From: Parcubacteria bacterium C7867-008
Lineage (GTDB): Bacteria; Patescibacteriota; Minisyncoccia; Phycocordibacterales; Phycocordibacteraceae
Reading direction: 5' to 3'
Assembly (NCBI GenBank): GCA_001189215.1
Contig: LFCR01000002.1
Location: 140,677-173,687 of the forward strand
Length of the DNA: 33,011 nt
Part shown: piece by piece, positions 1,614 through 12,308 of the stretch
How the letters are laid out: each line of letters opens with the position of its first letter
Numbering within the stretch: position 1 is the first letter of the stretch
The notes under the pieces: model-generated
The model's input: only the letters and a program-made list of their open reading frames with translations
Told to the model about the DNA's origin: nothing
Databases searched by the model: none
Position numbers and translations under genes: made by a program

Positions 1614-3026
1614 TTACGACACATCACGCTCCACGATGTCTTGTTCGCCGCGCTTGAGGCTGAACTGGCTGGGTTCAGATTCAAGATGCAGTACAAGACC
1701 ATGCGGACCATAGTTCTTAGTGAGGACCTCAGCCATCTGGCTCGCACGATGGTGCAGTGTCGGGTGAACATCGTTACGTGCACGACGCTCAACGAGATAG
1801 GTATGTCCGCGCAGGTCGCCGGTAATTCGGATGGGCACACGGTATCCCATGGGAATGTAGTATTGGTCGATACGGTCTTCGAGTTCGAGTCGCTGTAGTG
1901 CTGCAAGTTGACGTGCAAGCAGTTCCATCGCTTCTGCGCGAAGATCGTCCGGTAGCTCGTTCAGGTACCAGGGTTCAAAGCCATACTCTTCAGAGAGCAG
2001 TGGCATAGGAACCGTAACTGAACGATGTCGTTCAAGGTCGCGGAATGAAGCGAAGTCTAAGAGGAACGAGAATTCGGCGGTGCCGCATTCTCGAACATCC
2101 CACGGCAGTTCGATACCGCGAGGGCGTGACCCAAAGACATCTGCATATTCGCGCATCCGTTCTGGACGCACGGCATCGTGCGTCAGAGCGAAGACAGGAA
2201 ACGTTGACGCGTCAGCGATGAAATACCCTGACCCTTGTTGAGCCATGTAGGCATACCACTCACGGTCCTTGTGCCGACTCTCCCAATCAGGATCATTTGC
2301 ACGATCCGTGAATGAGTGCGGGTACTCCTTTAGAAGCAGCCCCTCCATTACCTCGGCAACTTCACGCACTTCAGGAAGCGGATGGTTTCGCAACCACGGA
2401 AGCCGATCGCCAAACTGCCGAATCGTACCTGTCCACGTTAGATTCGTAGATGCGCCGGCAGGCAGGAAGCTCCGCATGGTGTCGAAGGCGCGAGCGTTGA
2501 TTGCTTTTGCATACTTCTTCAGATCACCGTCTCCGATGACGTCAAACGGATATCGTTCAGCAAGAACAATTTGCATCCTCTCGAGACCCTTGAGATAAAA
2601 GGCACGCCAGTTCTCAAGGATTTGAACAGATGCAGTTGATCCGACTGGATCAACGAATGGTTGGGAAGCAAAGTCGATATAGCGGGTTGAAGCCTCTTGT
2701 CCGTTGTAGAGCGGGAAGTGCTGAATCGCTTTCGCGGTCAACATTGAAACTCCCGAAATACTAACGAACACTTCACCCATGTCGCCGATGGACTGGTGCC
2801 CATACCCGACATAGAACTGTTCCATAAAGTTACCGGAACCGCTCTTTCCTAGTCGTGTCAGATGCTTACGGATGCCGCCGACGGAGCGGCTATCCATGGC
2901 ACCCAGCATTGCTTTGTCTTCAGAGGTGATGAGCGCGCCGGTATTCAGCACGAGCACTTCACCTCCTCCACTCAGCTGAGCACTGTGGTGTAAAAGGTCA
3001 GAAACCTCGCGCATAGAAACCTCCAT
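1614..3026 (-). CDS. thyX: Flavin-dependent thymidylate synthase ThyX-like, tandem two-domain form
   Basis: 470-aa ORF. Half 1: GHQSIGDMGEV...AKAIQHFPLYNGQEASTRY...ARAFDTMRSFLPAGASTNLTWTGTIRQF. Half 2: FSFLLDFASFRDLERHRSVTVPMPLLSEEY...GDLRGHTYLVERRA..VHPTLHHRASQM. Both halves follow the ThyX motif order (GHES..., RHR-x7-S-x-RY, R..LP...T...N.R). GGAGG (3024-3020) lies 5 nt upstream of the second ATG at 3014, which is the likelier start. Confidence 0.7.
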   Translation of the reverse strand: MEVSMREVSDLLHHSAQLSGGGEVLVLNTGALITSEDKAMLGAMDSRSVGGIRKHLTRLGKSGSGNFMEQFYVGYGHQSIGDMGEVFVSISGVSMLTAKAIQHFPLYNGQEASTRYIDFASQPFVDPVGSTASVQILENWRAFYLKGLERMQIVLAERYPFDVIGDGDLKKYAKAINARAFDTMRSFLPAGASTNLTWTGTIRQFGDRLPWLRNHPLPEVREVAEVMEGLLLKEYPHSFTDRANDPDWESRHKDREWYAYMAQQGSGYFIADASTFPVFALTHDAVRPERMREYADVFGSRPRGIELPWDVRECGTAEFSFLLDFASFRDLERHRSVTVPMPLLSEEYGFEPWYLNELPDDLRAEAMELLARQLAALQRLELEDRIDQYYIPMGYRVPIRITGDLRGHTYLVERRARNDVHPTLHHRASQMAEVLTKNYGPHGLVLHLESEPSQFSLKRGEQDIVERDVS

Positions 3027-3143
3027 AGTTGCGAGTCTAGCATGAGCATATAGGTCCTAGAGAAAAGCAGCAAACATGTTGTAATTGCAGGATTAAAGCA
3101 TCACTGATACGGTGCAGTAAGATTTGAACCAAAGGAACAGACC

Positions 3144-3791
3144 ATGATCTCGCACCCACTTTTCATTTCGTTCGATGGTGGTGAAGGAGTTGGTAAGTCC
3201 ACTCAGAGCAAACTCCTTCAAGAACGACTGCCCAATCTCTATCCAGATCTCAGATTCATGTTCACCAGGGAGCCGGGTGGTACGCCTTTTGGCGGACTGA
3301 TTCGCTCCTTGATACTGTCGGAGGATGCAGAAAAGGCAGACGCAAACACAATGTTTGGTTTGTTTGTGGCAGACCGGGCGCATCATCTGAGCACTGTAGT
3401 TCTTCCTGCACTCAATGCCGGGAAGGTGGTGATCTCAGACCGATTTGTTGCAGCAACTTTCGCGTACCAGGCGTATGCGATGGATGGGAAGATTTCTACT
3501 GAACTCTTCGACCAGTATTACAACGAACTGCTGGCGCGTCCGGACCTTACGATCCTCTTCGATCTGAGTGTGGAGGAGTCGCAGTGTCGCGTCGCGGCTC
3601 GGAGGGGTGAAATCAACCATTTCGATCTGCAAACCTCTGATTTCCACCGCAAACTTTTCGAAGGGTATCGCAAGTTCGCAACGGACTATCACACCCAGGA
3701 CAACCAAGTGGCTCTCGTTGACGCTGCTGGCGACGTCGAAACGGTGCATGAGCGCATTATGGACTTGCTCATTCCAGCGCTTTGCACATGA
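3144..3791 (+). CDS. tmk: Thymidylate kinase
   Basis: 215 aa. P-loop FISFDGGEGVGKSTQ, then FTREPGGTPFG..IR and DRF..ATFAYQ, typical of Tmk. Weak AAGGA lies 7 nt upstream. Confidence 0.9.
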   Translation: MISHPLFISFDGGEGVGKSTQSKLLQERLPNLYPDLRFMFTREPGGTPFGGLIRSLILSEDAEKADANTMFGLFVADRAHHLSTVVLPALNAGKVVISDRFVAATFAYQAYAMDGKISTELFDQYYNELLARPDLTILFDLSVEESQCRVAARRGEINHFDLQTSDFHRKLFEGYRKFATDYHTQDNQVALVDAAGDVETVHERIMDLLIPALCT

Positions 3792-3795
3792 AGCT

Positions 3796-3833
3796 GAGCC
3801 CGCGACCGGGAGGTCGCGGGCTCACTCACTTTT
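3796..3833 (+). terminator. Intrinsic terminator after tmk
   Basis: 12-bp stem GAGCCCGCGACC (3796-3807) / GGTCGCGGGCTC (3812-3823) with loop GGGA, followed by ACTCACTTTT. Confidence 0.7.
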
Positions 3834-3852
3834 AAGGTACTATGACTGCAAT

Positions 3853-5151
3853 ATGGACTACTCACACATACAAAACGAAGACCGCGATCTCTACTCCCTC
3901 ATAGAAGGGGAGGAGGCTCGTCAGCGCGAAGGACTTGAACTGATTCCTTCAGAGAACTACGTCTCAAGCGCCGTGCGCGAAGCAATGTCTTCTGCACTCA
4001 CAAACAAGTATTCAGAAGGATACCCAGGCAAGCGGTATTACGGTGGTCAGGAATACACAGACCAAATTGAAACACTCGCTATTGAACGAGCTAAAAAGAT
4101 CTTCGGTGCTGATCACGCAAACGTACAACCACTTGGTGGAGCAGCTGCAAACATTGCTGCGTACTTCGCATGGCTTGAACCAGGAGACACGATTCTCGGC
4201 ATGGACCTTGCACACGGCGGACATCTTACTCACGGTGCTCCTGTTACGTACATGGCGAAACTCTTTAAGTTCGTACGTTACGGCATGAAAGATCCAGACA
4301 CTGGCGAGATAGATTACAACCAGCTTCGTGAGATCGCTCTCAAGGAACGACCAAAGATTATCCTCGGAGGATTCTCTGGATACTCCCGCTCAATAGATTG
4401 GGCAAAGATCTCTGAGATCGCACGAGAAGTTGATGCTGTTGCTATGGCAGATGTTGCACACATTGCAGGACTTATTGCAGGGGGTGCTGCAGAGAATCCG
4501 TTTGATCATGGTTTCCAGATTGTTACGACCACCACACACAAAACACTTCGTGGTCCCCGTGGCGCCATGATCCTTTCGAAGGGAACGGTCTCTTCACCAC
4601 TACGTGCTCCTGAGAAGACGGTAGAGAATCTTCCAACACTTATCGATCGCAGCGTGTTTCCGGGCCTTCAAGGCGGACCACATATGCACCAGATCGCTGC
4701 AAAAGCAGTGGCGTTCAATGAAGCGCTCCATCCTAACTTCAAGACATATGCGCATCAGGTGGTAGCGAATGCCAAGGCAATGGCAGAAGTCTTTAAGGAA
4801 GAAGGGGTACGACTCATTGGTGGTGGTACAGACAATCACCTTATCCTTGCAGATGTGTATGGGTCTCTTGGTATCTCAGGTGGTGACGCAGAAACACTGC
4901 TTGATGCTGCAGGTATAACACTCAACAAGAACTCTATTGCAGGAGATACGCGTAAGCCATTTGATCCATCCGGCATCCGTTTCGGTACACCAGCAATAAC
5001 AACGCGTGGATTCAAAGAGGAACAAGTAACAGAGGTTGCTCGTATCATGATCGATGTTCTTAAAAACAAAGATGATGCAGCGGTGTCTAAAGCGCGAGCA
5101 TCCATAAAAGAACTTGCTGAAGCAAATCCTGTTCCTGAATCATTTATCTAG
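3853..5151 (+). CDS. glyA: Serine hydroxymethyltransferase
   Basis: The true start is at MDYSHIQNEDRDLYSLIEGEEARQREGLELIPSENYVS; the track ORF from 3568 overlaps tmk and crosses the terminator. Motifs: GYPGKRYYGG, HGGHLTHG, TTTTHKTLRGPRG (PLP lysine). TACTAT (3838-3843) lies 9 nt upstream of the ATG. Confidence 0.95.
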   Translation: MDYSHIQNEDRDLYSLIEGEEARQREGLELIPSENYVSSAVREAMSSALTNKYSEGYPGKRYYGGQEYTDQIETLAIERAKKIFGADHANVQPLGGAAANIAAYFAWLEPGDTILGMDLAHGGHLTHGAPVTYMAKLFKFVRYGMKDPDTGEIDYNQLREIALKERPKIILGGFSGYSRSIDWAKISEIAREVDAVAMADVAHIAGLIAGGAAENPFDHGFQIVTTTTHKTLRGPRGAMILSKGTVSSPLRAPEKTVENLPTLIDRSVFPGLQGGPHMHQIAAKAVAFNEALHPNFKTYAHQVVANAKAMAEVFKEEGVRLIGGGTDNHLILADVYGSLGISGGDAETLLDAAGITLNKNSIAGDTRKPFDPSGIRFGTPAITTRGFKEEQVTEVARIMIDVLKNKDDAAVSKARASIKELAEANPVPESFI

Positions 5152-5220
5152 TTTGACTATTTTCGTACATATAGTATTTTCCGCCTAGACCTGAATTCAC
5201 AGGAAACAGGAGATTAATTC

Positions 5221-5748
5221 ATGACGGCAGCCGTAAAAGCAGCTGTTGCTGACGATTCTGGTCGCAGCCAGCTGTACTGCTCGTTCTGTGGTCACTCACA
5301 GCACGAAGTTAAGAAACTCATTGCGGGGGGAGCAACTGTGTTCATCTGCGATGAGTGCGTGGGTCTATGTCTCGACATCATTGGTGAGGACTCGAGCTTT
5401 GCCGACGTCGAGCAGTTTGCCAGCTTGGGCCGGAGAAGTATTCGACGTCGTGCATGGATATCTATCCAAATGTCGGGTGGAGATTTCCTGAAGTCTGCGC
5501 TCGGTATCGACTTGCTCGAAGAGGGCAAGGATATTGGCTCGATGCAAGAAGTCGCCGCAAAGTTGTTGCACTGTCTCCGTGGACTGGTAATCGGAGCACA
5601 ATCGATCGAGGAGCTGCTTGCAGCAAAAAGGGCGATTCTGACAGACCTCGATGATGCCCACGCTATCTATGTCGGTGAAGATGAGCAAAAGCGACGCAAC
5701 CTTGCCGCTATTGAGGCTGAGATCGCAAGAAAAGGTGCCAGCACCTAA
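5221..5748 (+). CDS. Stand-alone ClpX-type C4 zinc-finger domain protein with an uncharacterised helical C-terminal region
   Basis: 175 aa. Residues ~17-55, [37 protein letters not shown], closely resemble the ClpX N-terminal zinc-binding domain (E. coli [36 protein letters not shown]). No AAA+ module follows. AGGAG (5208-5212) lies 8 nt upstream. Confidence 0.7.
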
Positions 5749-5773
5749 ACTCAGGTTGTTCTGTAAAAGATTG

Positions 5774-5803
5774 ACGCCCGCCTACTCGGTGGGCGTTTCT
5801 TTT
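5774..5803 (+). terminator. Intrinsic terminator after the ClpX-ZBD gene
   Basis: Stem ACGCCCGCC (5774-5782) / GGTGGGCGT (5788-5796) with one G-U pair and loop TACTC, followed by TTCTTTT. Confidence 0.6.
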
Positions 5804-5809
5804 GGGCCT

Positions 5810-5824
5810 ATTCTGCTATAGTCC
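5810..5824 (+). promoter_or_regulatory. Extended -10 promoter (TGcTATAGT), copy 1, 6 nt upstream of the ATG at 5829
   Basis: ATTCTGCTATAGTCC is identical over 15 nt to 6132-6146. The TATAGT hexamer is at 5817-5822. Confidence 0.5.
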
Positions 5825-5828
5825 TCAT

Positions 5829-6116
5829 ATGAAAGAGATGCACGATGAAGTGGTAGAGCAAATGCTTGAACGCATTGCTAATGCACTTGGGCAGATACAG
5901 AAATATCGTGCATCTCATCTAGACAACCCTCGTCTCGAAAACATCCTCACGCAGCTGGAACGTGTTGAGCACGTTCTCGAAGAGAAGGGCAGGCTGGAGT
6001 ATCGAGAGAAACTAGACCTAGATTTTCATCTCATTGAAGACACTCCTCTAGAAGGGAATTCTCATCTAGGTCGTGAGTTATATAGCATCAAGAATTTCAC
6101 CGAACATAACCTATAA
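5829..6116 (+). CDS. Hypothetical small helical protein (95 aa)
   Basis: MKEMHDEVVEQMLERIANALGQIQKYR...; no family recognised. The ATG at 5829 is preferred over the track's TTG at 5802 because the -10 element sits between them. Confidence 0.5.
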   Translation: MKEMHDEVVEQMLERIANALGQIQKYRASHLDNPRLENILTQLERVEHVLEEKGRLEYREKLDLDFHLIEDTPLEGNSHLGRELYSIKNFTEHNL

Positions 6117-6131
6117 GGTATTCCGGTGCTG

Positions 6132-6146
6132 ATTCTGCTATAGTCC
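6132..6146 (+). promoter_or_regulatory. Extended -10 promoter (TGcTATAGT), copy 2, 6 nt upstream of the argS ATG
   Basis: ATTCTGCTATAGTCC with TATAGT at 6139-6144 and the ATG at 6151. No SD. Confidence 0.5.
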
Positions 6147-6150
6147 CACT

Positions 6151-7827
6151 ATGGAAAACCGAATCCGCCAAGCGGTTCAGCAGTCCCTCGAAACACTCGG
6201 AGCAACCGGAGTGGCCTTTGCGGTGGAGTGGCCAGCTGATCCTGCACATGGAGACTTTGCCGTTAATGCGGGATTTGCAGCGAGCAAGATTCTTGGAAAG
6301 AATCCTCGTGAGATCGCTGAGGCAATTGCCCCTGCCCTCAAAGAAGCGCTCGGGGATGATGCAGCACACATTGAGGTTGCCGGTGCTGGTTTCATAAACA
6401 TCACGCTTTCAGCAAACGCTGTTGCAAAACTTCTAACAGAAGCAAAGGGTGATACGTGGGGTATTGGCACTGCGCACGCCGGTGAGCGGATCATGATCGA
6501 GTACTCAAACCCGAATCCATTTAAGGAGATGCACATAGGACACCTCATGAGTGCAATCATTGGCGAATCAATGTCTCGTCTGATGGAATCTTCAGGAGCT
6601 AATGTCGTACGTGATACGTACGGTGGTGACGTTGGTCCACATGTGGCGAAAGCAATCTGGGGCCTTCGAGATAACGGTGTTGCTGAAACACCAAGCGCTG
6701 AAGATATTGGAAACGCGTATGCGCACGGCGCACGCGCCTATGAAGAGAGTGAAACAATAAAGAAGGATATCGATGCATTGAACGCACAGATATACGCGAT
6801 GCTCGCAAAGGATCCTACAGAGCACTCCGAAGAGGAGCGTGTACTACATGACACGTGGATCCGCGGACGCGAAGTATCGGTTACTGCGTATCGAAAGCTC
6901 TGGGATCGCCTTGGTTCACATTTTGATTACACGATCTTCGAAAGTGATACGACACCTATCGGCATGCGTATCGTGCAGGATGAGATCAAGAATGGAGTCT
7001 TTGAAGAAAGTGAAGGAGCAGTTATTTATCGTGGTGAGAAGGTTGGTCTACATACTCTCGTATTCATTACCTCATACGGTACGCCAACATACGAAACAAA
7101 GGATATCGGTCTTGCGTTCTGGAAAGAGGAACACGCACCAACCGATAAGGTATTCATTCTCACCGCTGCTGAACAAGTAGGGCACTTCAAGATTGTTATT
7201 GCTGCACTCAATGAGTTCGCTCCACAGCTCGCAAACAAGATGCAGCATATCTCGCATGGCTTCCTCAAGCTCACGACTGGCAAGATGTCTTCTCGTGAAG
7301 GAAACGTTATCACCGCAGAAGAACTTATTCGTGATGTTATCGAACGTGCGAGTGAAAAGAACGAAGACCCACTCATAGCAGAACAAGTAGCACTTGGTGC
7401 CATTAAATACATGATCCTTCGTCAGGCACCTGGGGGAGACATCATCTTCGACATGGAGAAGTCTCTTTCTCTTGAGGGAGATTCAGGCCCTTATCTCCAG
7501 TACGCATTAGTACGTGCTACTTCAATTCTTGCTGCGTCCGAAGTGTCTCCCGCAACAACCACATCATTCGAAAACGAAGCACCACTTCTAGCGCGTATGA
7601 TCACACGCTTCCCTGAAGTCGTCGCACGAGCAGAAGAACTCCGTGGACCACATGTGCTCGTTACGTACCTCACCCAACTAGCAGGGGAGTGGAATTTTTT
7701 CTACGCGTCAGGAAAGATTATCGGAAGTGAGAACGAAGCGAGCACACTCGCACTCGTTCAAGCATTTGTTACGACCATGCGTAACGGTCTAACTATTCTC
7801 GCAATCCCCGTGCCAGAGAAAATGTAG
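6151..7827 (+). CDS. argS: Arginyl-tRNA synthetase
   Basis: 558 aa. ArgRS N-terminal add-on domain (ADPAHGDFAVNAGF..SKILGKNPREIAE), class I signature NPNPFKEMHIGHLMSAIIG, and the typical C-terminal ...PEKM ending in Met. Confidence 0.95.
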   Translation: MENRIRQAVQQSLETLGATGVAFAVEWPADPAHGDFAVNAGFAASKILGKNPREIAEAIAPALKEALGDDAAHIEVAGAGFINITLSANAVAKLLTEAKGDTWGIGTAHAGERIMIEYSNPNPFKEMHIGHLMSAIIGESMSRLMESSGANVVRDTYGGDVGPHVAKAIWGLRDNGVAETPSAEDIGNAYAHGARAYEESETIKKDIDALNAQIYAMLAKDPTEHSEEERVLHDTWIRGREVSVTAYRKLWDRLGSHFDYTIFESDTTPIGMRIVQDEIKNGVFEESEGAVIYRGEKVGLHTLVFITSYGTPTYETKDIGLAFWKEEHAPTDKVFILTAAEQVGHFKIVIAALNEFAPQLANKMQHISHGFLKLTTGKMSSREGNVITAEELIRDVIERASEKNEDPLIAEQVALGAIKYMILRQAPGGDIIFDMEKSLSLEGDSGPYLQYALVRATSILAASEVSPATTTSFENEAPLLARMITRFPEVVARAEELRGPHVLVTYLTQLAGEWNFFYASGKIIGSENEASTLALVQAFVTTMRNGLTILAIPVPEKM

Positions 7828-7904
7828 GTTGCGAAAGAGTACTAAAAGCGATAGGGTAGGCAACAGACTGTTCATCCAGGGCAGTTTAATAGGGAGGCGA
7901 AACG

Positions 7905-8195
7905 TTGTCGGATTTGGCGCAAGACGACTCGGATATCAACGCGAACCACGGCATCTATCGGCGGTTTCGGAAAGGGATCATGCGTGATCACTCCGACATC
8001 CTGATCGATGCTGGCGCGCAGGCCACGCCGCCGGTTTCAAGGGACCAGGCGGTCCTGGACAGTATCGACTTCGAAGACGGTCTGAAGACGCAGCGCGTCT
8101 TCAGACCACCGCACTACGTGATGCCCTATGTCTTGGCGGAGATCGCCAGGCTGAAGGGCGCCGGTGCGGGCACCCGTGAACTGCAGGCGGCCTAA
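7905..8195 (+). CDS. Hypothetical 96-aa protein in a high-GC islet (TTG start)
   Basis: GGGAGG (7892-7897) lies 7 nt upstream of the TTG. No family recognised. The C-terminal ...VLAEIARLKGAGAGTRELQAA* resembles the first helix of an HTH that stops abruptly. It contains a perfect 13-bp inverted repeat. Confidence 0.4.
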   Translation: MSDLAQDDSDINANHGIYRRFRKGIMRDHSDILIDAGAQATPPVSRDQAVLDSIDFEDGLKTQRVFRPPHYVMPYVLAEIARLKGAGAGTRELQAA

Positions 8196-8222
8196 CGAGG
8201 TTCGCCAACAACTGAAACAGAA

Positions 8223-8259
8223 GGCCCGGTCGCGCAAGCGTCCGGGCTGTTTCCTTTTT
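8223..8259 (+). terminator. Intrinsic terminator after the 7905 ORF
   Basis: GCCCGG (8224-8229) / CCGGGC (8242-8247) enclose CGC-GCAA-GCG, followed by TGTTTCCTTTTTA. Confidence 0.6.
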
Positions 8260-8287
8260 ATGGTACGAACGATAGGATAAGTAAATC

Positions 8288-11200
8288 ATGGCTGAAATGG
8301 AGAACGATGATAATCAGGTATCTGAAGTAGCAAAACGTGAGGAGGAAATCCTTGCGTATTGGAACGAACAGCAGACCTTCAAAGCTTCTCTTGAGAAACC
8401 ATCTCCTAATGGTGAGTACGTTTTCTACGATGGTCCTCCATTTGCAACTGGGCTCCCACATCACGGGCATATTCTTGCCGGCACTATAAAAGATGCGATA
8501 CCACGTTATAAGACGATGCGTGGTTTCCACGTGCGCCGCCGTTGGGGCTGGGACTCACACGGTTTGCCACTCGAGAACATCATCGAGAAAGAACTTGGCA
8601 TAAAGACGAAGCGAGATATCGAAGAGATGGGAGTTTCCGTATTTAACGAAGCAGCTCGTAACGCGGTACTTCGGTATGCAAATGAGTGGAAGCGCATCGT
8701 ACCTCGTATTGGTCGGTGGGTGGACATGGAGGATGACTATAAGACCATGGACACCACATACACAGAATCTGTGTGGTGGGCATTCAAGAGACTCTTTGAT
8801 AAGGATCTTATCGAAGAAGGGTTTAAAGTAATGCAACTATGTCCCCGTTGTGGAACAACACTCTCTAACTTTGAGGTCAGTCAGGGATACAAAGATATAA
8901 AAGATATAACTGCGTACGCAAAGTTTGAATTAGAAGATGAGCTCGGTACGTATCTTCTCGCATGGACCACCACGCCATGGACGCTTCCTGGAAATATCGC
9001 ACTCGCGCTTGGTACAGATATTGAATACGTAAAGGTAGAAAAGCAGGGAGGCCACTACATTCTTGCAGGAGCGCTTGTTGAAAAAGTATTTGGTGAGGAT
9101 CACGGCGATGTCACTCCAGTACATAAGTCCGAACTTCTTGGACGAGTATACAAGCCAGTGTTCCCAGGGGTAATCGATACACTTGCTGAAGGAAAGGAGC
9201 GAGACAAACTCGGTGCTGCATTCCATGTATACGAAGCAGACTTTGTTACCGCTGAAGATGGAACCGGTATCGTACACATTGCACCGGCATTCGGTGAAGA
9301 TGATCTCAGTCTCGCGCGAGTGCACGGACTACCGATAGTGCACCACGTAGATCGCGATGGCCGCATGATGAGTGCCGTACCTGCAGTTGCCGGAAAGCTC
9401 GCAAAGCCGAAAGGGCAGTGGTGGGAGACCGATGCACTTATTGTTGAATATCTCGGAGATAAACTTTTTAAAACAGAAGAAAAGGTACACAGCTATCCGC
9501 ATTGCTGGCGCTGCGATACACCGCTCCTCAACTATGCTTCTGGTTCATGGTTTGTTCGCGTGCCAACATTTAAAGACAAACTTGTTGCTGAGAATGAGAA
9601 GGTTGGATGGGTACCTGAAGCTATTGGAAAGAATCGTTTCGGTGATTGGCTTAACAATGCACGAGACTGGGCAATCTCACGTAGTCGCTATTGGGGTGCA
9701 CCTATTCCCGTATGGAAGAACGAGAAGACGGGGGCGCTTCAAGTATTTGGTTCCGTAGAAGATCTCAAGAAGCATGCAAAGAAGAGTGGCAACCGATACT
9801 TCGTCATGCGCCATGGTGAAGGTGAGCACAATATAAAGGGAGTTGCTGCTAAGGGAGACGAAACATTCCGTGCCGTATTAACGGAAACTGGTCGTGCTCA
9901 AGCTAAGAAGAATGCAGCAGCACTTGCACATGCAAATGTAACGCGCATTATTGCGTCACCACTTGCGCGTGGATGTGAGACCGCAGCAATTGTAAAAGAA
10001 ACACTCGGACTAACTAACGTAGAGATTGTCCAGGATGAGCGTCTCCGTGAATTCAACTTTGGTGAGCTAGATGGAAAACCGATAGGGGAATTTGTCCGGT
10101 GGCGTGAAGAAACTACATACGCAGATCGTATCCCAGGAGGGGAGAGCTACCAGGATGTTAAGAATCGTATTGGAGAAGTTCTCTACGAACTTGAACGTAC
10201 CTATCAAAACGAAACAATCCTTATCGTTACACATGGCGTAGGTATTGAGACAATCAATGCGGTTGCACAGGGAATAGATAAGGACGCTTCAAAGAAACTC
10301 TCTGCAGACATGGTACCTCTGTATGCAACACCACTTGAACTAGATTTCACGCCACTTCCACATAACACGGAATACGAACTTGATCTCCATCGTCCGTATA
10401 TCGATGAGTACGCATTGGTAGACACTGACGGATCTCTACTTCATCGTGTTGCTGATGTCTTTGATTGTTGGTTTGAATCTGGCTCAATGTCCTACGCGCA
10501 GGATCATTATCCGTTTGAGAAAGACAACTTTGATCCTGAAACCGGACTCTTCAAGAAATCCAAAGGATACCCAGCAGACTTCATTGCAGAAGGATTAGAC
10601 CAGACACGTGGCTGGTTCTATTCGATGATCGTCCTTGGTACGGCATTGTTTGGACATTCTCCGTATAAGCACGTGATCGTGAACGGTCTTATTCTCGCTG
10701 AAGACGGCAGGAAGATGTCTAAGAGTTTGAAGAACTATCCAGAACCTATGGATGTGGTGGCTAAGTACGGTGCAGACGCTCTTCGTCTCTATCTACTTTC
10801 TTCACCGCTCATGCGTTCTGAAGATCTCAGGTTCTCAGAGAAGGGGGTAGCGGAGGTAGGGAACAAGGTAATTGGTCGCTTGCACAACACACTCGTTTTC
10901 TACGAGACGTATGCGATGAATGATGTACCAGAAACAGTCTCAAGTACCCACGTACTTGATCGTTGGATCATGGCGCGCCTTAAGGAAGTGCGTGATGAAG
11001 TTACTGAGGGACTTGAGTCGTATGAACTCGATCGTGCAGCACGTCCTCTCGCACAACTGGTTGATGACCTTTCAACCTGGTATCTTAGACGATCACGTGA
11101 CCGTGTAAAAGATTCGGTCGATGCTGCAGCAACTATGCGCTGTGTACTTCGAACAACTGCATTGCTGTTCGCCCCATTCACACCTTTCTATGCTGAATAC

Positions 11201-11749
11201 CTGTGGCGCAACGTTAAATTCATTTCAGATCCTGAAAGTGTTCACCTTGCTGATTGGCCAGAACTCAAGGGTGCAGATCAGAAAACTCTGCTAGAAGATA
11301 TGGCACTTGTTCGTACACTTGCATCAGAAGCGCTTAAGCTGCGCCAGCAGGCAGGTATCGTAGTGCGTCAGCCACTCGCTTCACTTAGTGCACCCACTAT
11401 TCCAAGCACACCAGAACTCATAGAGATTCTCAAGGAAGAGGTCAATGTTAAGGATGTATTGAAGCACGAAGGTGACATGACACTCGATACAGAACTAACT
11501 GAGGAATTAAAGCGTGAGGGTGATGTACGTGCATTCATGCGTGCACTTGCAGATGCTCGTAAAGATATGAATCTTTCTCCAAAGGATAGTGTGATGGTTG
11601 TTGCCCACAGCGCGGCAAAAGAAATACTTGCGAACCTTACGCTGCCAGGACTTGCAGAACTCTCATTCGAAGATTCAGTTGATGGTCCGTATACTGCAGA
11701 ATTCTCTGCTATGAAGATTGGTTTTACCGTTACTCGCAATGCGGCATAA
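8288..11749 (+). CDS. ileS: Isoleucyl-tRNA synthetase (type 2-like) carrying an internal histidine-phosphatase domain
   Basis: 1153 aa. Motifs: PPFATGLPHHGHILAG (HIGH), WGWDSHGLP, WTTTPWTLPGN (editing CP1), WAISRSRYWGAPIPVW, GRKMSKSLKNYPEP (KMSKS). The extra ~200 aa are described in the next feature. Confidence 0.95.
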   Translation: MAEMENDDNQVSEVAKREEEILAYWNEQQTFKASLEKPSPNGEYVFYDGPPFATGLPHHGHILAGTIKDAIPRYKTMRGFHVRRRWGWDSHGLPLENIIEKELGIKTKRDIEEMGVSVFNEAARNAVLRYANEWKRIVPRIGRWVDMEDDYKTMDTTYTESVWWAFKRLFDKDLIEEGFKVMQLCPRCGTTLSNFEVSQGYKDIKDITAYAKFELEDELGTYLLAWTTTPWTLPGNIALALGTDIEYVKVEKQGGHYILAGALVEKVFGEDHGDVTPVHKSELLGRVYKPVFPGVIDTLAEGKERDKLGAAFHVYEADFVTAEDGTGIVHIAPAFGEDDLSLARVHGLPIVHHVDRDGRMMSAVPAVAGKLAKPKGQWWETDALIVEYLGDKLFKTEEKVHSYPHCWRCDTPLLNYASGSWFVRVPTFKDKLVAENEKVGWVPEAIGKNRFGDWLNNARDWAISRSRYWGAPIPVWKNEKTGALQVFGSVEDLKKHAKKSGNRYFVMRHGEGEHNIKGVAAKGDETFRAVLTETGRAQAKKNAAALAHANVTRIIASPLARGCETAAIVKETLGLTNVEIVQDERLREFNFGELDGKPIGEFVRWREETTYADRIPGGESYQDVKNRIGEVLYELERTYQNETILIVTHGVGIETINAVAQGIDKDASKKLSADMVPLYATPLELDFTPLPHNTEYELDLHRPYIDEYALVDTDGSLLHRVADVFDCWFESGSMSYAQDHYPFEKDNFDPETGLFKKSKGYPADFIAEGLDQTRGWFYSMIVLGTALFGHSPYKHVIVNGLILAEDGRKMSKSLKNYPEPMDVVAKYGADALRLYLLSSPLMRSEDLRFSEKGVAEVGNKVIGRLHNTLVFYETYAMNDVPETVSSTHVLDRWIMARLKEVRDEVTEGLESYELDRAARPLAQLVDDLSTWYLRRSRDRVKDSVDAAATMRCVLRTTALLFAPFTPFYAEYLWRNVKFISDPESVHLADWPELKGADQKTLLEDMALVRTLASEALKLRQQAGIVVRQPLASLSAPTIPSTPELIEILKEEVNVKDVLKHEGDMTLDTELTEELKREGDVRAFMRALADARKDMNLSPKDSVMVVAHSAAKEILANLTLPGLAELSFEDSVDGPYTAEFSAMKIGFTVTRNAA
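9770..10378 (+). other. In-frame histidine-phosphatase (phosphoglycerate-mutase-like) domain inserted in IleRS (aa ~495-697)
   Basis: NRYFVMRHGEGEHN (R508 H509 G510 at 9809-9817), LTETGRAQA, IIASPLARGCETA, ERLREFNFGELDG, IPGGESYQDV, ILIVTHGVGIE. This is the ordered motif set of the His_Phos_1 superfamily. Confidence 0.75.
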
Positions 11750-12308
11750 ATACACCACTGCTGCGTTAGTGCTCGCACGCTTTCCACTCTCGGAAGCAAG
11801 TTCGCTTGTAACATTACTCACGGCAGATTTTGGTGTGATACGTGCACGAAGTCAGGGATTGCGAAAACCTGGAGCAAAGATGAGTGCGGGGCTGCAGACA
11901 CTTGCTGAATCAGACGTGACCCTTCTAAAAGGGAAGGAGGGGTGGAGGATGGCAGGTTCTGTACTGGCTCGAGATTGGGCACACGTCTTACCGAAGGATG
12001 CACGAACTCGCGCCGGGCGGGTGGCCGAACTTATGCTTCGGTTTGTTCACGGTGAAGCCACAGACGCAACACTCTTTACGATCTATACGAATTTCATAAC
12101 CGTATTACCAACCCTTTCTGAGGTGGAACAGGACGCCGCAGAGTGTCTTGCGGTGCTTCGTATTCTTCGAACCCTTGGTCTTGATGCAGGTGTAATCCCA
12201 GGAGAAGGGGATGAAGATTACAGTGAAGCCACACGAGCTGTAGTACGTGCAGAGCGAACAGATATAATTTCTCGTATCAATCGTGGCATTGGTGCTTCGG
12301 GATTATAG
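11739..12308 (+). CDS. recO: DNA repair protein RecO
   Basis: MRHKYTTAALVLARFPLSEASSLVTLLTADFGVIRARSQGLRKPGAKMS... shows a RecO OB-fold N-terminus and helical C-terminus. The ATG at 11739 overlaps the ileS stop (11747-11749) by 11 nt, which suggests translational coupling. Confidence 0.8.
   Translation: MRHKYTTAALVLARFPLSEASSLVTLLTADFGVIRARSQGLRKPGAKMSAGLQTLAESDVTLLKGKEGWRMAGSVLARDWAHVLPKDARTRAGRVAELMLRFVHGEATDATLFTIYTNFITVLPTLSEVEQDAAECLAVLRILRTLGLDAGVIPGEGDEDYSEATRAVVRAERTDIISRINRGIGASGL

Follow-up and report, generated by a model that had tools for sequence, protein, structure and literature searches.

A histidine-phosphatase domain nested in isoleucyl-tRNA synthetase recurs across many Patescibacteria

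We analyzed a stretch of 33,011 nucleotides from Parcubacteria bacterium C7867-008 (contig LFCR01000002.1, positions 140,677 to 173,687 of the forward strand; hereafter the window), in which ileS, the gene for isoleucyl-tRNA synthetase (IleRS), encodes an additional domain within the synthetase body. A preliminary description of this DNA, made from the letters alone, had reported an ileS open reading frame (ORF) of 1153 amino acids (aa) that is interrupted by about 200 extra residues at 9770-10378, and had read these residues as a complete histidine phosphatase. The ORF lies at 8288..11749 of the forward strand with the length and sequence quoted there, and window positions 9770-10378 correspond to aa 495-697 of its product. 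The whole protein scored 839.5 bits against the NCBIfam equivalog model for ileS (TIGR00392; cutoff 621.4), followed by the models for the type-2 mupirocin-resistant enzymes MupA and MupB, while it stayed under the cutoffs of the valS and leuS models. The layout of the gene is as follows.

8288..11749 (+): ileS ORF, 1153 aa, a type-2 (eukaryote/MupA-like) IleRS with a nested phosphatase domain
8459..8470 (+): HIGH signature of the synthetic site, H58-H59-G60-H61, read from the sequence
8966..9304 (+): editing motifs of connective peptide 1 (CP1), TTTPWTLPGN at aa 227-236 and GTGIVHIAPAFGEDD at aa 325-339, from a 119-sequence alignment
9713..9784 (+): first half of connective peptide 3 (CP3), aa ~476-499, KNEKTGALQVFGSVEDLKK, CxxC zinc ligands lost
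9785..10357 (+): predicted nested histidine-phosphatase domain (His_Phos_1, PhoE/PspA-like), aa ~500-690, from Pfam, AlphaFold2 strands and Foldseek
9809..9814 (+): R508-H509 of the RHG motif, putative phosphate-binding Arg and nucleophilic His, conserved in 121/121 aligned sequences
9968..9970 (+): R561, putative second phosphate-binding Arg, conserved in 121/121
10049..10051 (+): E588, putative general acid/base (proton donor), 117 Glu and 4 Asp among 121
10232..10234 (+): H649, putative second catalytic His (THG motif), conserved in 121/121
10358..10471 (+): second half of CP3, PLPHN..YELDLHRPYID...DVFDCWFESG, CxC zinc ligands lost
10712..10726 (+): KMSKS loop, K809-S813, read from the sequence

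Judged by its motifs, the only ileS visible in the window is a fully equipped type-2 IleRS that has HIGH, KMSKS and the CP1 editing motifs. In the 119-sequence alignment, P57 was invariant and H58, G60 and H61 were each kept in at least 90% of the sequences, and K809 and K812 of the KMSKS loop were invariant. The CP1 editing domain also appears intact, as W226, T227, T228, T229, W231, T232, P234, N236, G325, G327, H330 and D339 were invariant columns and the editing motif GTGIVHxAPAFGxxD was invariant or nearly so. A full-length AlphaFold2 model, built on the homologue alignment, had a mean predicted local distance difference test score (pLDDT) of 92.5 and a predicted template modelling score (pTM) of 0.87, and Foldseek supported the IleRS fold (TMt 0.91 to the Thermus thermophilus enzyme 1ILE, 0.82 to Priestia megaterium IleRS2, 8C9D). 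Compared with these type-2 enzymes (1ILE; 8C8U-8C9D), the window protein shares the body, the fold (TM 0.82-0.91), HIGH, KMSKS, CP1, the position of CP3 and a DUF5915-type C-terminus, whereas its CP3 has a putatively catalytic domain of ~190 aa in place of a ~5-residue loop and, unlike that of T. thermophilus and many relatives, lacks the zinc ligands.

The extent of the insert was defined by alignment with T. thermophilus IleRS (phmmer vs 1ILE), in which query residues 15-499 matched Thermus residues 11-482 and query residues 698-1012 matched Thermus residues 488-809. Thus, ~198 residues in the window enzyme stand for a ~5-residue Thermus loop (KARATK|PLPEPFDPHRPY), in agreement with the size first reported. 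The same difference was seen in the spacing between the WGxPIPxW and DxWxxSG motifs, which measured 51-67 aa in 46 insert-less IleRS from a broad range of phyla and 241-268 aa where one insert is present. In Pfam, tRNA-synt_1 was split by the insert, with aa 21-500 covering profile positions 2-270 and the rest following downstream, and aa 505-673 matched His_Phos_1 (PF00300; profile positions 2-171 of 194) with E = 8.3e-35 and 120.6 bits against a gathering score of 21.7, which bears out the assignment to the histidine-phosphatase superfamily. The first and last strands of the insert in the AlphaFold2 model, at aa 503-508 and 682-685, place the domain boundaries at aa ~500-690. Since pLDDT in the full-length model was 89-98 all through aa 500-700, linkers included, with the pTM of 0.87, the prediction is of an ordered domain docked onto the synthetase with no floppy tether; when modelled alone, the insert had a pLDDT of 94.9.

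All motifs of the superfamily that had been listed for the insert were found, namely R508-H509-G510, S557..R561..T565, E588..G592, P616-G-G-E619-S and T648-H649-G650, and the catalytic positions, which had been called intact, were conserved as given above, together with N515 in 118/121 sequences. By these features the insert is a complete branch-1 histidine phosphatase with an apparently competent catalytic set, and it is very probably an active phosphatase. Its closest structural neighbours (Foldseek; TM ~0.7, 24-30% identity) were 4IJ5, 4PZ9, 1H2E and 1FZT, each with probability 1.0, and 6NRU, and a riboflavin-pathway histidine phosphatase and TIGAR were also among the neighbours at TM ~0.7. 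The fold, the size and the R-H...R...E...H catalytic set of the insert match those of Hydrogenobacter thermophilus PspA (4IJ5, a metal-independent phosphoserine phosphatase), Bacillus stearothermophilus PhoE (1H2E), mycobacterial GpgP Rv2419c (4PZ9, a glucosyl-3-phosphoglycerate phosphatase) and CobC (6NRU, 6E4B; alpha-ribazole phosphatase). These enzymes are free-standing, often dimeric and metabolic, whereas the insert is nested in, or encoded beside, an aminoacyl-tRNA synthetase.

We also compared the insert with narrower families. Cofactor-dependent phosphoglycerate mutase (dPGM) proper has extra residues that bind 2,3-bisphosphoglycerate or the substrate, such as an Arg straight after the catalytic Glu; in the insert, a Phe directly follows E588. 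The mutase-specific models fell far under their cutoffs (dPGM_arch 80-84 bits vs 225, GpmB 68-73 vs 261, PRK14115 28.6 vs 305), which argues for a phosphatase rather than a mutase, and a phosphoglycerate mutase proper was rejected; the insert is, as far as its sequence tells, phosphoglycerate mutase-like in fold only. The CobC and PspA equivalogs were likewise rejected (TIGR03162 80-84 bits vs 162.9; PhserinePhPspA 65-70 vs 350). Since every NCBIfam equivalog model (dPGM, GpmB, CobC, PspA, SixA) was far under its cutoff, no substrate annotation can be transferred to the insert. The best partial NCBIfam match was the bifunctional RNase H/acid phosphatase (PRK07238; Mycobacterium tuberculosis Rv2228c type) with 89.7 bits vs a cutoff of 326. 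That protein sets a precedent by combining a His_Phos domain with an enzyme that acts on nucleic acids, although its parts are joined end-to-end and the partner is a different one, whereas the insert is nested.

The insert recurs far beyond this genome. We collected homologues from contigs of NCBI, JGI, ENA and Logan, which had been assembled independently, and considered the best 120 matches listed, which range from 90% down to 52% identity; PF00300 and PF00133 occurred together in 120/120, and the named ones belong to Parcubacteria, Paceibacterota, Kaiserbacteria or the 'Patescibacteria group'. In an exhaustive profile search, 498 representative clusters matched the insert profile at E <= 1e-30. 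The insert is a lineage-wide feature of many Patescibacteria and not peculiar to the window genome: the survey of orthologues thus upheld its presence in IleRS, but not the picture of a singularity of one genome. Identity to the query among the 121 aligned sequences was 39% for the insert and 62% for the synthetase body. In a comparison with the gene of Parcubacteria bacterium C7867-007, which is 90% identical, the ratio of nonsynonymous to synonymous substitution rates (dN/dS) was 0.051 in the insert, compared with 0.032-0.049 in the catalytic body and 0.088 in the C-terminal domain, values that are rough only, with dS close to saturation. By this measure, the insert is under purifying selection as strong as that acting on the synthetase body.

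These data bear on the suspicion that the insert is an assembly chimera, a frameshift artefact or an intein-like selfish element, which could be prompted by the metagenome-type origin of the window and by a conserved His-Asn dipeptide at the C-terminal junction (P691-H692-N693) that superficially resembles an intein end. Its likelihood is negligible, and it is already refuted by the recurrence and selection data. The junctions are reproduced in all 120 listed homologues from independent assemblies and in the 498 representative clusters, the 90%-identical gene has co-linear codons, and the GC content of the insert (0.45-0.48) is like that of the rest of ileS; assembly or frameshift artefact was ruled out by the recurrence and the co-linear gene. 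An intein was rejected as well. The insert has a His_Phos fold and no Hint/intein match in the Pfam scan, the residue after N693 is variable, and the Pro-Leu-Pro motif at this junction is native CP3 sequence that also occurs in T. thermophilus IleRS. The insert is in frame, as had been stated at the outset; it sits between the two halves of CP3.

The insertion point is the CP3 zinc knuckle. In Candida albicans IleRS, CP3 comprises residues 473-534, flanked by CP2 on one side and by the second Rossmann-fold half on the other, and its zinc-binding motif is held by the T. thermophilus enzyme but lacking in the Candida and Staphylococcus aureus enzymes (PMC7191050). The window enzyme has zero cysteines flanking the insert on both sides, and its alignment with T. 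thermophilus IleRS resumes at Thermus residue 488 in the second half of CP3. A complete CxxC...CxC knuckle surrounds the insert in 30 other insert-bearing IleRS, and an intact CxxC...CxC knuckle is also present at the insertion point of insert-less ileS products encoded next to a stand-alone phosphatase gene (see below). Because these 30 enzymes and the insert-less relatives keep the knuckle, we infer that the phosphatase was inserted into the loop at the tip of a zinc knuckle that was still intact, and that the clade of the window lost the zinc ligands afterwards. This loss after the gain of the domain, together with the rigid docking in the model, would suit a non-catalytic structural or regulatory module, that is, a scaffold or ligand sensor that replaced the knuckle and lost turnover. 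Such a role is barely credible, since the 30 enzymes hold both knuckle and insert, and the five catalytic residues are all kept in ~97% of more than 200 copies, including tandem, alternative-site and free-standing ones; a pure scaffold would not keep the nucleophile and the acid/base at 30-40% overall identity.

In sister Patescibacteria, the insert profile detected the same subfamily (profile positions 7-192) as proteins of ~190 aa that start with Met. The order argS-phosphatase gene-ileS was found for 7/8 stand-alone relatives examined, and a complete ileS was visible in 5/7 of those loci; it was insert-less, with 931-950 aa, and abutted or overlapped the phosphatase gene in 4/5. The eight loci are as follows (hp, phosphatase gene).

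P0241: argS - hp - ileS (931 aa), 1-bp gap
P0262: argS - hp - gene cut off by contig end
P0284: argS - hp - ileS (938 aa), 10-nt overlap
L015 (Staskawiczbacteria species genome): hp - ileS (950 aa), abutting
P0317: argS - hp - ileS (950 aa)
P0333: argS - hp - ileS (950 aa)
P0320: argS - hp - gene cut off by contig end
P0326: away from ileS, beside secA

A second profile search returned ~27 further stand-alone proteins at E <= 1e-41, one of which is named 'isoleucyl-tRNA synthetase' by JGI. The signature N-x-[YF]-[FY]-x-[LM]-RHG is common to stand-alone and nested copies, and this phosphatase subfamily is specific to Patescibacteria. The nested form is best read as a Rosetta-stone fusion in which IleRS took up its operon partner. 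Since the two are encoded by adjacent or overlapping genes in certain genomes and joined in one polypeptide elsewhere, a functional, and probably physical, partnership between the phosphatase and IleRS is suggested; furthermore, the overlap of the phosphatase stop with the ileS start suggests translational coupling.

The window shows the same gene order as the stand-alone-phosphatase loci, argS - (hp) - ileS - recO - DUF11/CLIPPER protein - proS, with the following immediate partners of ileS.

6151..7827 (+): argS, synteny partner on the upstream side; the stand-alone phosphatase gene of sister lineages is located between it and ileS
11718..12308 (+): recO-like gene, the downstream synteny partner, in the same order in stand-alone-phosphatase loci

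The argS-ileS spacer of the window (7828-8287, 460 bp) lies at the exact position where relatives hold the stand-alone gene, and its GC content reaches 0.61 vs ~0.47 around it. It contains an ORF at 7905-8195 (+) of 96 aa with a TTG start and no Pfam match, and a GC-rich hairpin with a T-run at ~8220-8259, 3' of this ORF. At the same spot, the 90%-identical genome (L102, 2588-2908) has an ORF of 106 aa with faint similarity (MPDYVKVLVDKAR vs VMPYVLAEIARLK). A remnant of the phosphatase gene was considered for the spacer and rejected, as the spacer has this small unrelated ORF, and an Rfam search of the spacer for a T-box or other RNA gave sub-threshold noise only. Elsewhere, genes of a diversity-generating retroelement (bAvd and the reverse transcriptase RVT_1) lie upstream of argS in two independent argS - phosphatase - ileS loci (L098, 851-2230; L100, 647-2135), directly ahead of argS in L100 and with one AA_kinase gene between in L098. 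In a further locus (L087, 937-6869), an insert-bearing ileS is broken into ~8 frame-shifted pieces, probably by long-read assembly errors, with an IS605 OrfB/TnpB-like gene and cas1 between argS and ileS. An apparent stand-alone phosphatase, P0122, turned out to be a piece of this frameshifted gene and was discarded; spurious 'stand-alone' calls can therefore arise from such broken genes.

We then classified the host proteins for the best 150 of at least 498 representative clusters.

IleRS-flanked phosphatase: 106/150
complete, stand-alone-like: 17/150
di-domain proteins, flank not seen: 6/150
ValRS host: 2/150
TsaC fusion: 1/150
ambiguous fragments: 18/150

At least two phosphatase copies were present in 12 synthetases of this set, including a tandem pair in CP3 in Peribacteria (L010/P0214); this IleRS of 1472 aa is encoded at 3001-7131 of CAYRXE010000008.1. 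Within IleRS, CP3 is not the only site of insertion. A second site is the loop ahead of the PADFIAEG strand (query aa ~740-760) and a third is the junction between the catalytic/stem-contact fold and the anticodon-binding domain (aa ~878-888); these alternative sites were seen in P0193, P0218, P0249, P0269 and the Peribacteria/Gracilibacteria species genomes L103-L105. Two hosts, P0250 and P0163, are valyl-tRNA synthetases (ValRS), scoring 849 and 411 bits for valS vs 361 and 199 for ileS in NCBIfam, in agreement with BLAST. P0250 (1538 aa) has two phosphatase copies, and ~230 of its residues (aa 634 to 865) are without assignment; the fragment P0163 has four, and the ValRS of a Gracilibacteria species genome (L090) has one at the CP3-equivalent site. 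P0223 is a threonylcarbamoyl-AMP synthase (TIGR00057, 146.8 vs 123.2 bits) with the phosphatase at its C-terminus; this TsaC/Sua5 fusion is encoded at 977-2140 of a single 3.7-kb contig (L088). No ArgRS with a phosphatase domain was found among the best 150 representatives. R508-H509 was retained by almost all copies at every site, as was the catalytic set as a whole; the clearest exception to the whole set among alternative-site copies is copy 1 of P0250, with Glu replaced by Ala. The module is promiscuous, but within a narrow set of hosts.

The domain copies are highly divergent (~32% mean pairwise identity); for the stand-alone clusters, the nearest copies are certain ones from CP3, with 44-46% identity. 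We built a neighbour-joining tree of the IleRS body, which allows local statements only, as its deep nodes have bootstrap values below 30. The insert-bearing P0302 grouped with the insert-less L066 and L048 (bootstrap 100), and one clade combined different sites, with P0287 at CP3 and P0193 and P0218 at the other two (bootstrap 92-98). These supported mixed pairs and the mixed-site clade indicate that gain, loss and relocation have been recurrent. The retained zinc ligands give a polarity, and we infer an adjacent gene and an intact knuckle as the ancestral state. The Peribacteria/Gracilibacteria enzymes P0193, P0218 and P0287 have spirochaetes (Treponema, Salinispira), not Patescibacteria, as their nearest insert-less relatives, which hints at horizontal transfer of ileS, in a tree whose deep nodes are without support.

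Such mobility would suit a rival reading, in which the domain would be an ordinary metabolic phosphomonoesterase, for example of the phosphoserine or phosphosugar type, with no role in aminoacylation, a chance neighbour of ileS that was rearranged in streamlined genomes into tolerant loops and is simply co-expressed. The closest solved structures are free small-molecule phosphatases, precise geometry seems not to be required, given the several insertion loops and one to four copies, P0326 is a stand-alone relative located away from ileS, and the fusion is evidently dispensable, since insert-bearing and insert-less enzymes are sister taxa. Nevertheless, we consider this piggy-backing rather unlikely. 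The neighbour argS is without the domain in the best 150 representatives, whereas IleRS gained it at no fewer than three sites, and members of this subfamily also entered TsaC and ValRS, a paralogue of IleRS. The overlap between the phosphatase stop and the ileS start is suggestive of coupled translation, and the docked, high-confidence placement in the model would indicate an evolved interface and no loose tether. On balance, we lean slightly toward a phosphatase that is functionally coupled to IleRS and not merely co-encoded with it.

As to what the coupled enzyme does, our favoured reading, held tentatively and with a little less than even confidence, is a small-molecule-type phosphohydrolase that is tethered in cis, acts on a small terminal-phosphate ligand of the adenylation step and serves as a dedicated partner of IleRS. 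A small-molecule ligand is favoured because the fold and cap are like those of PspA, GpgP, PhoE and CobC, and proximity rather than precise geometry would count, since the insertion sites are scattered and the copy number is variable. By the established His_Phos mechanism, R508, R561 and H649 would hold the terminal phosphoryl group, H509 would attack it to form a phospho-histidine intermediate, and E588 would protonate the leaving group and then activate water. IleRS, ValRS and TsaC all catalyze a reaction of the type ATP + acid -> acyl-AMP + inorganic pyrophosphate (PPi). PPi is the most parsimonious candidate ligand because it is the sole product common to the three, and its removal would pull adenylate formation forward; that the substrate is PPi specifically is nonetheless doubtful.

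Several points weigh against this favoured reading. The 121 sequences have no conserved extra basic residues for a second phosphate beyond the generic core, a mild argument against PPi. An inorganic pyrophosphatase is reported for complete Peribacteria genomes (PMC4736985), so that the module would not be needed as the sole pyrophosphatase, at least in Peribacteria. The bias toward IleRS (225 vs 2 ValRS) is unexplained by a generic role in PPi removal and could merely reflect the ancestral gene neighbourhood, and the ValRS and TsaC cases are few. Finally, the fast divergence, variable copy number and patchy gain and loss look more accessory or conflict-like than like core metabolism.

The last of these points would suit a function in tRNA-end repair, in which a 2'/3'-phosphate or a 3'-pyrophosphate installed by a toxin (toxSAS-type) is taken off the CCA end before charging. 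The main hosts, IleRS and ValRS, bind tRNA, the bifunctional RNase H/acid phosphatase gave, with its phosphatase half, the best partial NCBIfam match, and patchy distribution, rapid divergence and copy-number variation would fit conflict. Removal of phosphate from tRNA ends was among the roles proposed at the outset, and in the form of a precisely positioned active site it has become less likely, as the module sits at three or more IleRS loops in one to four copies, exists as a separate protein and is fused to TsaC. The tRNA 3' end is not involved in TsaC catalysis. Moreover, tRNA contacts of CP3 are not described in those IleRS-tRNA structure papers that we consulted, the modelled active site appears capped like those of small-molecule enzymes, and a near-exclusive association with IleRS would not be expected for general tRNA repair. 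PADLOC gave no defence-system match for the insert or the TsaC fusion, and a known anti-phage defence component was rejected on this ground; the stand-alone P0241 had a marginal PADLOC match only (E = 4.6e-4, 18 bits). We regard tRNA-end repair as improbable.

By analogy, the domain might instead be a built-in protein phosphatase that keeps S811 and S813 of KMSKS dephosphorylated and confers immunity to kinase toxins. HipA/HipT-like toxins inactivate class I synthetases by phosphorylating the KMSKS motif, and the His_Phos superfamily includes the protein phosphatases PGAM5, Sts-1 and SixA. The existence of such members, a phosphoserine phosphatase as the top structural match and the conflict-like evolutionary pattern are consistent with this role, and since kinase toxins target one synthetase each, it would account for the IleRS bias. 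However, a kinase partner was seen in none of the neighbourhoods examined, phosphorylation of IleRS, ValRS or TsaC is not known, and the modelled active site is capped in the manner of small-molecule enzymes. This role seems highly improbable.

A broader proposal, possible but somewhat unlikely, is that the module is a new class of accessory catalytic domain of adenylate-forming translation enzymes that reverses a phosphorylation-type lesion, or a fourth, metal-independent family of pyrophosphatase that is tethered where PPi arises. The lesion could lie on the tRNA 3' end or on serines of the enzyme's own ATP site, or consist of a phosphorylated inhibitor, and the module would have been recruited repeatedly, and in multiple copies, for that activity. 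If lesion reversal is true, it would represent a repair or immunity activity built into essential synthetases.

Targeted full-text literature searches yielded no paper in which a histidine phosphatase is described as nested within an aminoacyl-tRNA synthetase or as its genetic partner, consistent with the initial impression that the architecture is undescribed. Databases hold it as automatic Pfam hits only, the proteins often being named no more than 'class I tRNA ligase family protein' at NCBI, and NCBIfam has no curated model for a phosphatase-bearing IleRS. A precedent for an extra catalytic domain is ileS_w_GNAT (NF040702), an IleRS with an added N-acetyltransferase domain that is curated as a named exception family. 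Its domain is of another kind, and the window protein is not a member (291 bits vs a cutoff of 1999). Rosetta-stone fusions in general likewise occur as separate adjacent or overlapping genes in some genomes and as one polypeptide in others; unlike a simple gene fusion, the phosphatase is an internal loop insertion into an essential enzyme, recurrent at several loops and in several hosts, which is unusual.

Two other ORFs of the window deserve mention. At 1614-3026 (-), an ORF of 469 aa within a dCTP deaminase - thyX - tmk - glyA nucleotide cluster has a partial ThyX (Thy1) match at aa 65-235 as its sole Pfam match; it is ~2x the usual length of ThyX and may be a duplicated or extended ThyX or have a miscalled start. 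The ORF for serine hydroxymethyltransferase (SHMT) at 3568-5151 (+) has a GTG start ~100 codons ahead of the SHMT match in Pfam and a ~220-bp overlap with tmk, and its true start is probably further downstream than listed.

Each part of this enzyme comes from a well-known family; the combination is newly recognised, widespread and robust. Synthetases are among the best-studied enzymes, and their accessory domains for editing, tRNA binding and signalling have each revealed new biology. IleRS is the target of mupirocin, and the domain alters the surface of this antibiotic target. A curated model like ileS_w_GNAT would improve the annotation of genomes of the candidate phyla radiation, and the family is a clear-cut case in nature of an essential enzyme into which a domain was inserted repeatedly, with the separate gene, the nested domain and the other hosts as three independent handles on function. 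Should the substrate prove to be tRNA or the synthetase itself, or should the domain represent a pyrophosphatase of a new type, the biology could be new as well. A conserved, selected and apparently active phosphatase that is built into IleRS throughout a large radiation of bacteria would imply that tRNA charging is coupled to a reaction on a phosphate ester or phosphoanhydride, a step that current models of translation do not contain.

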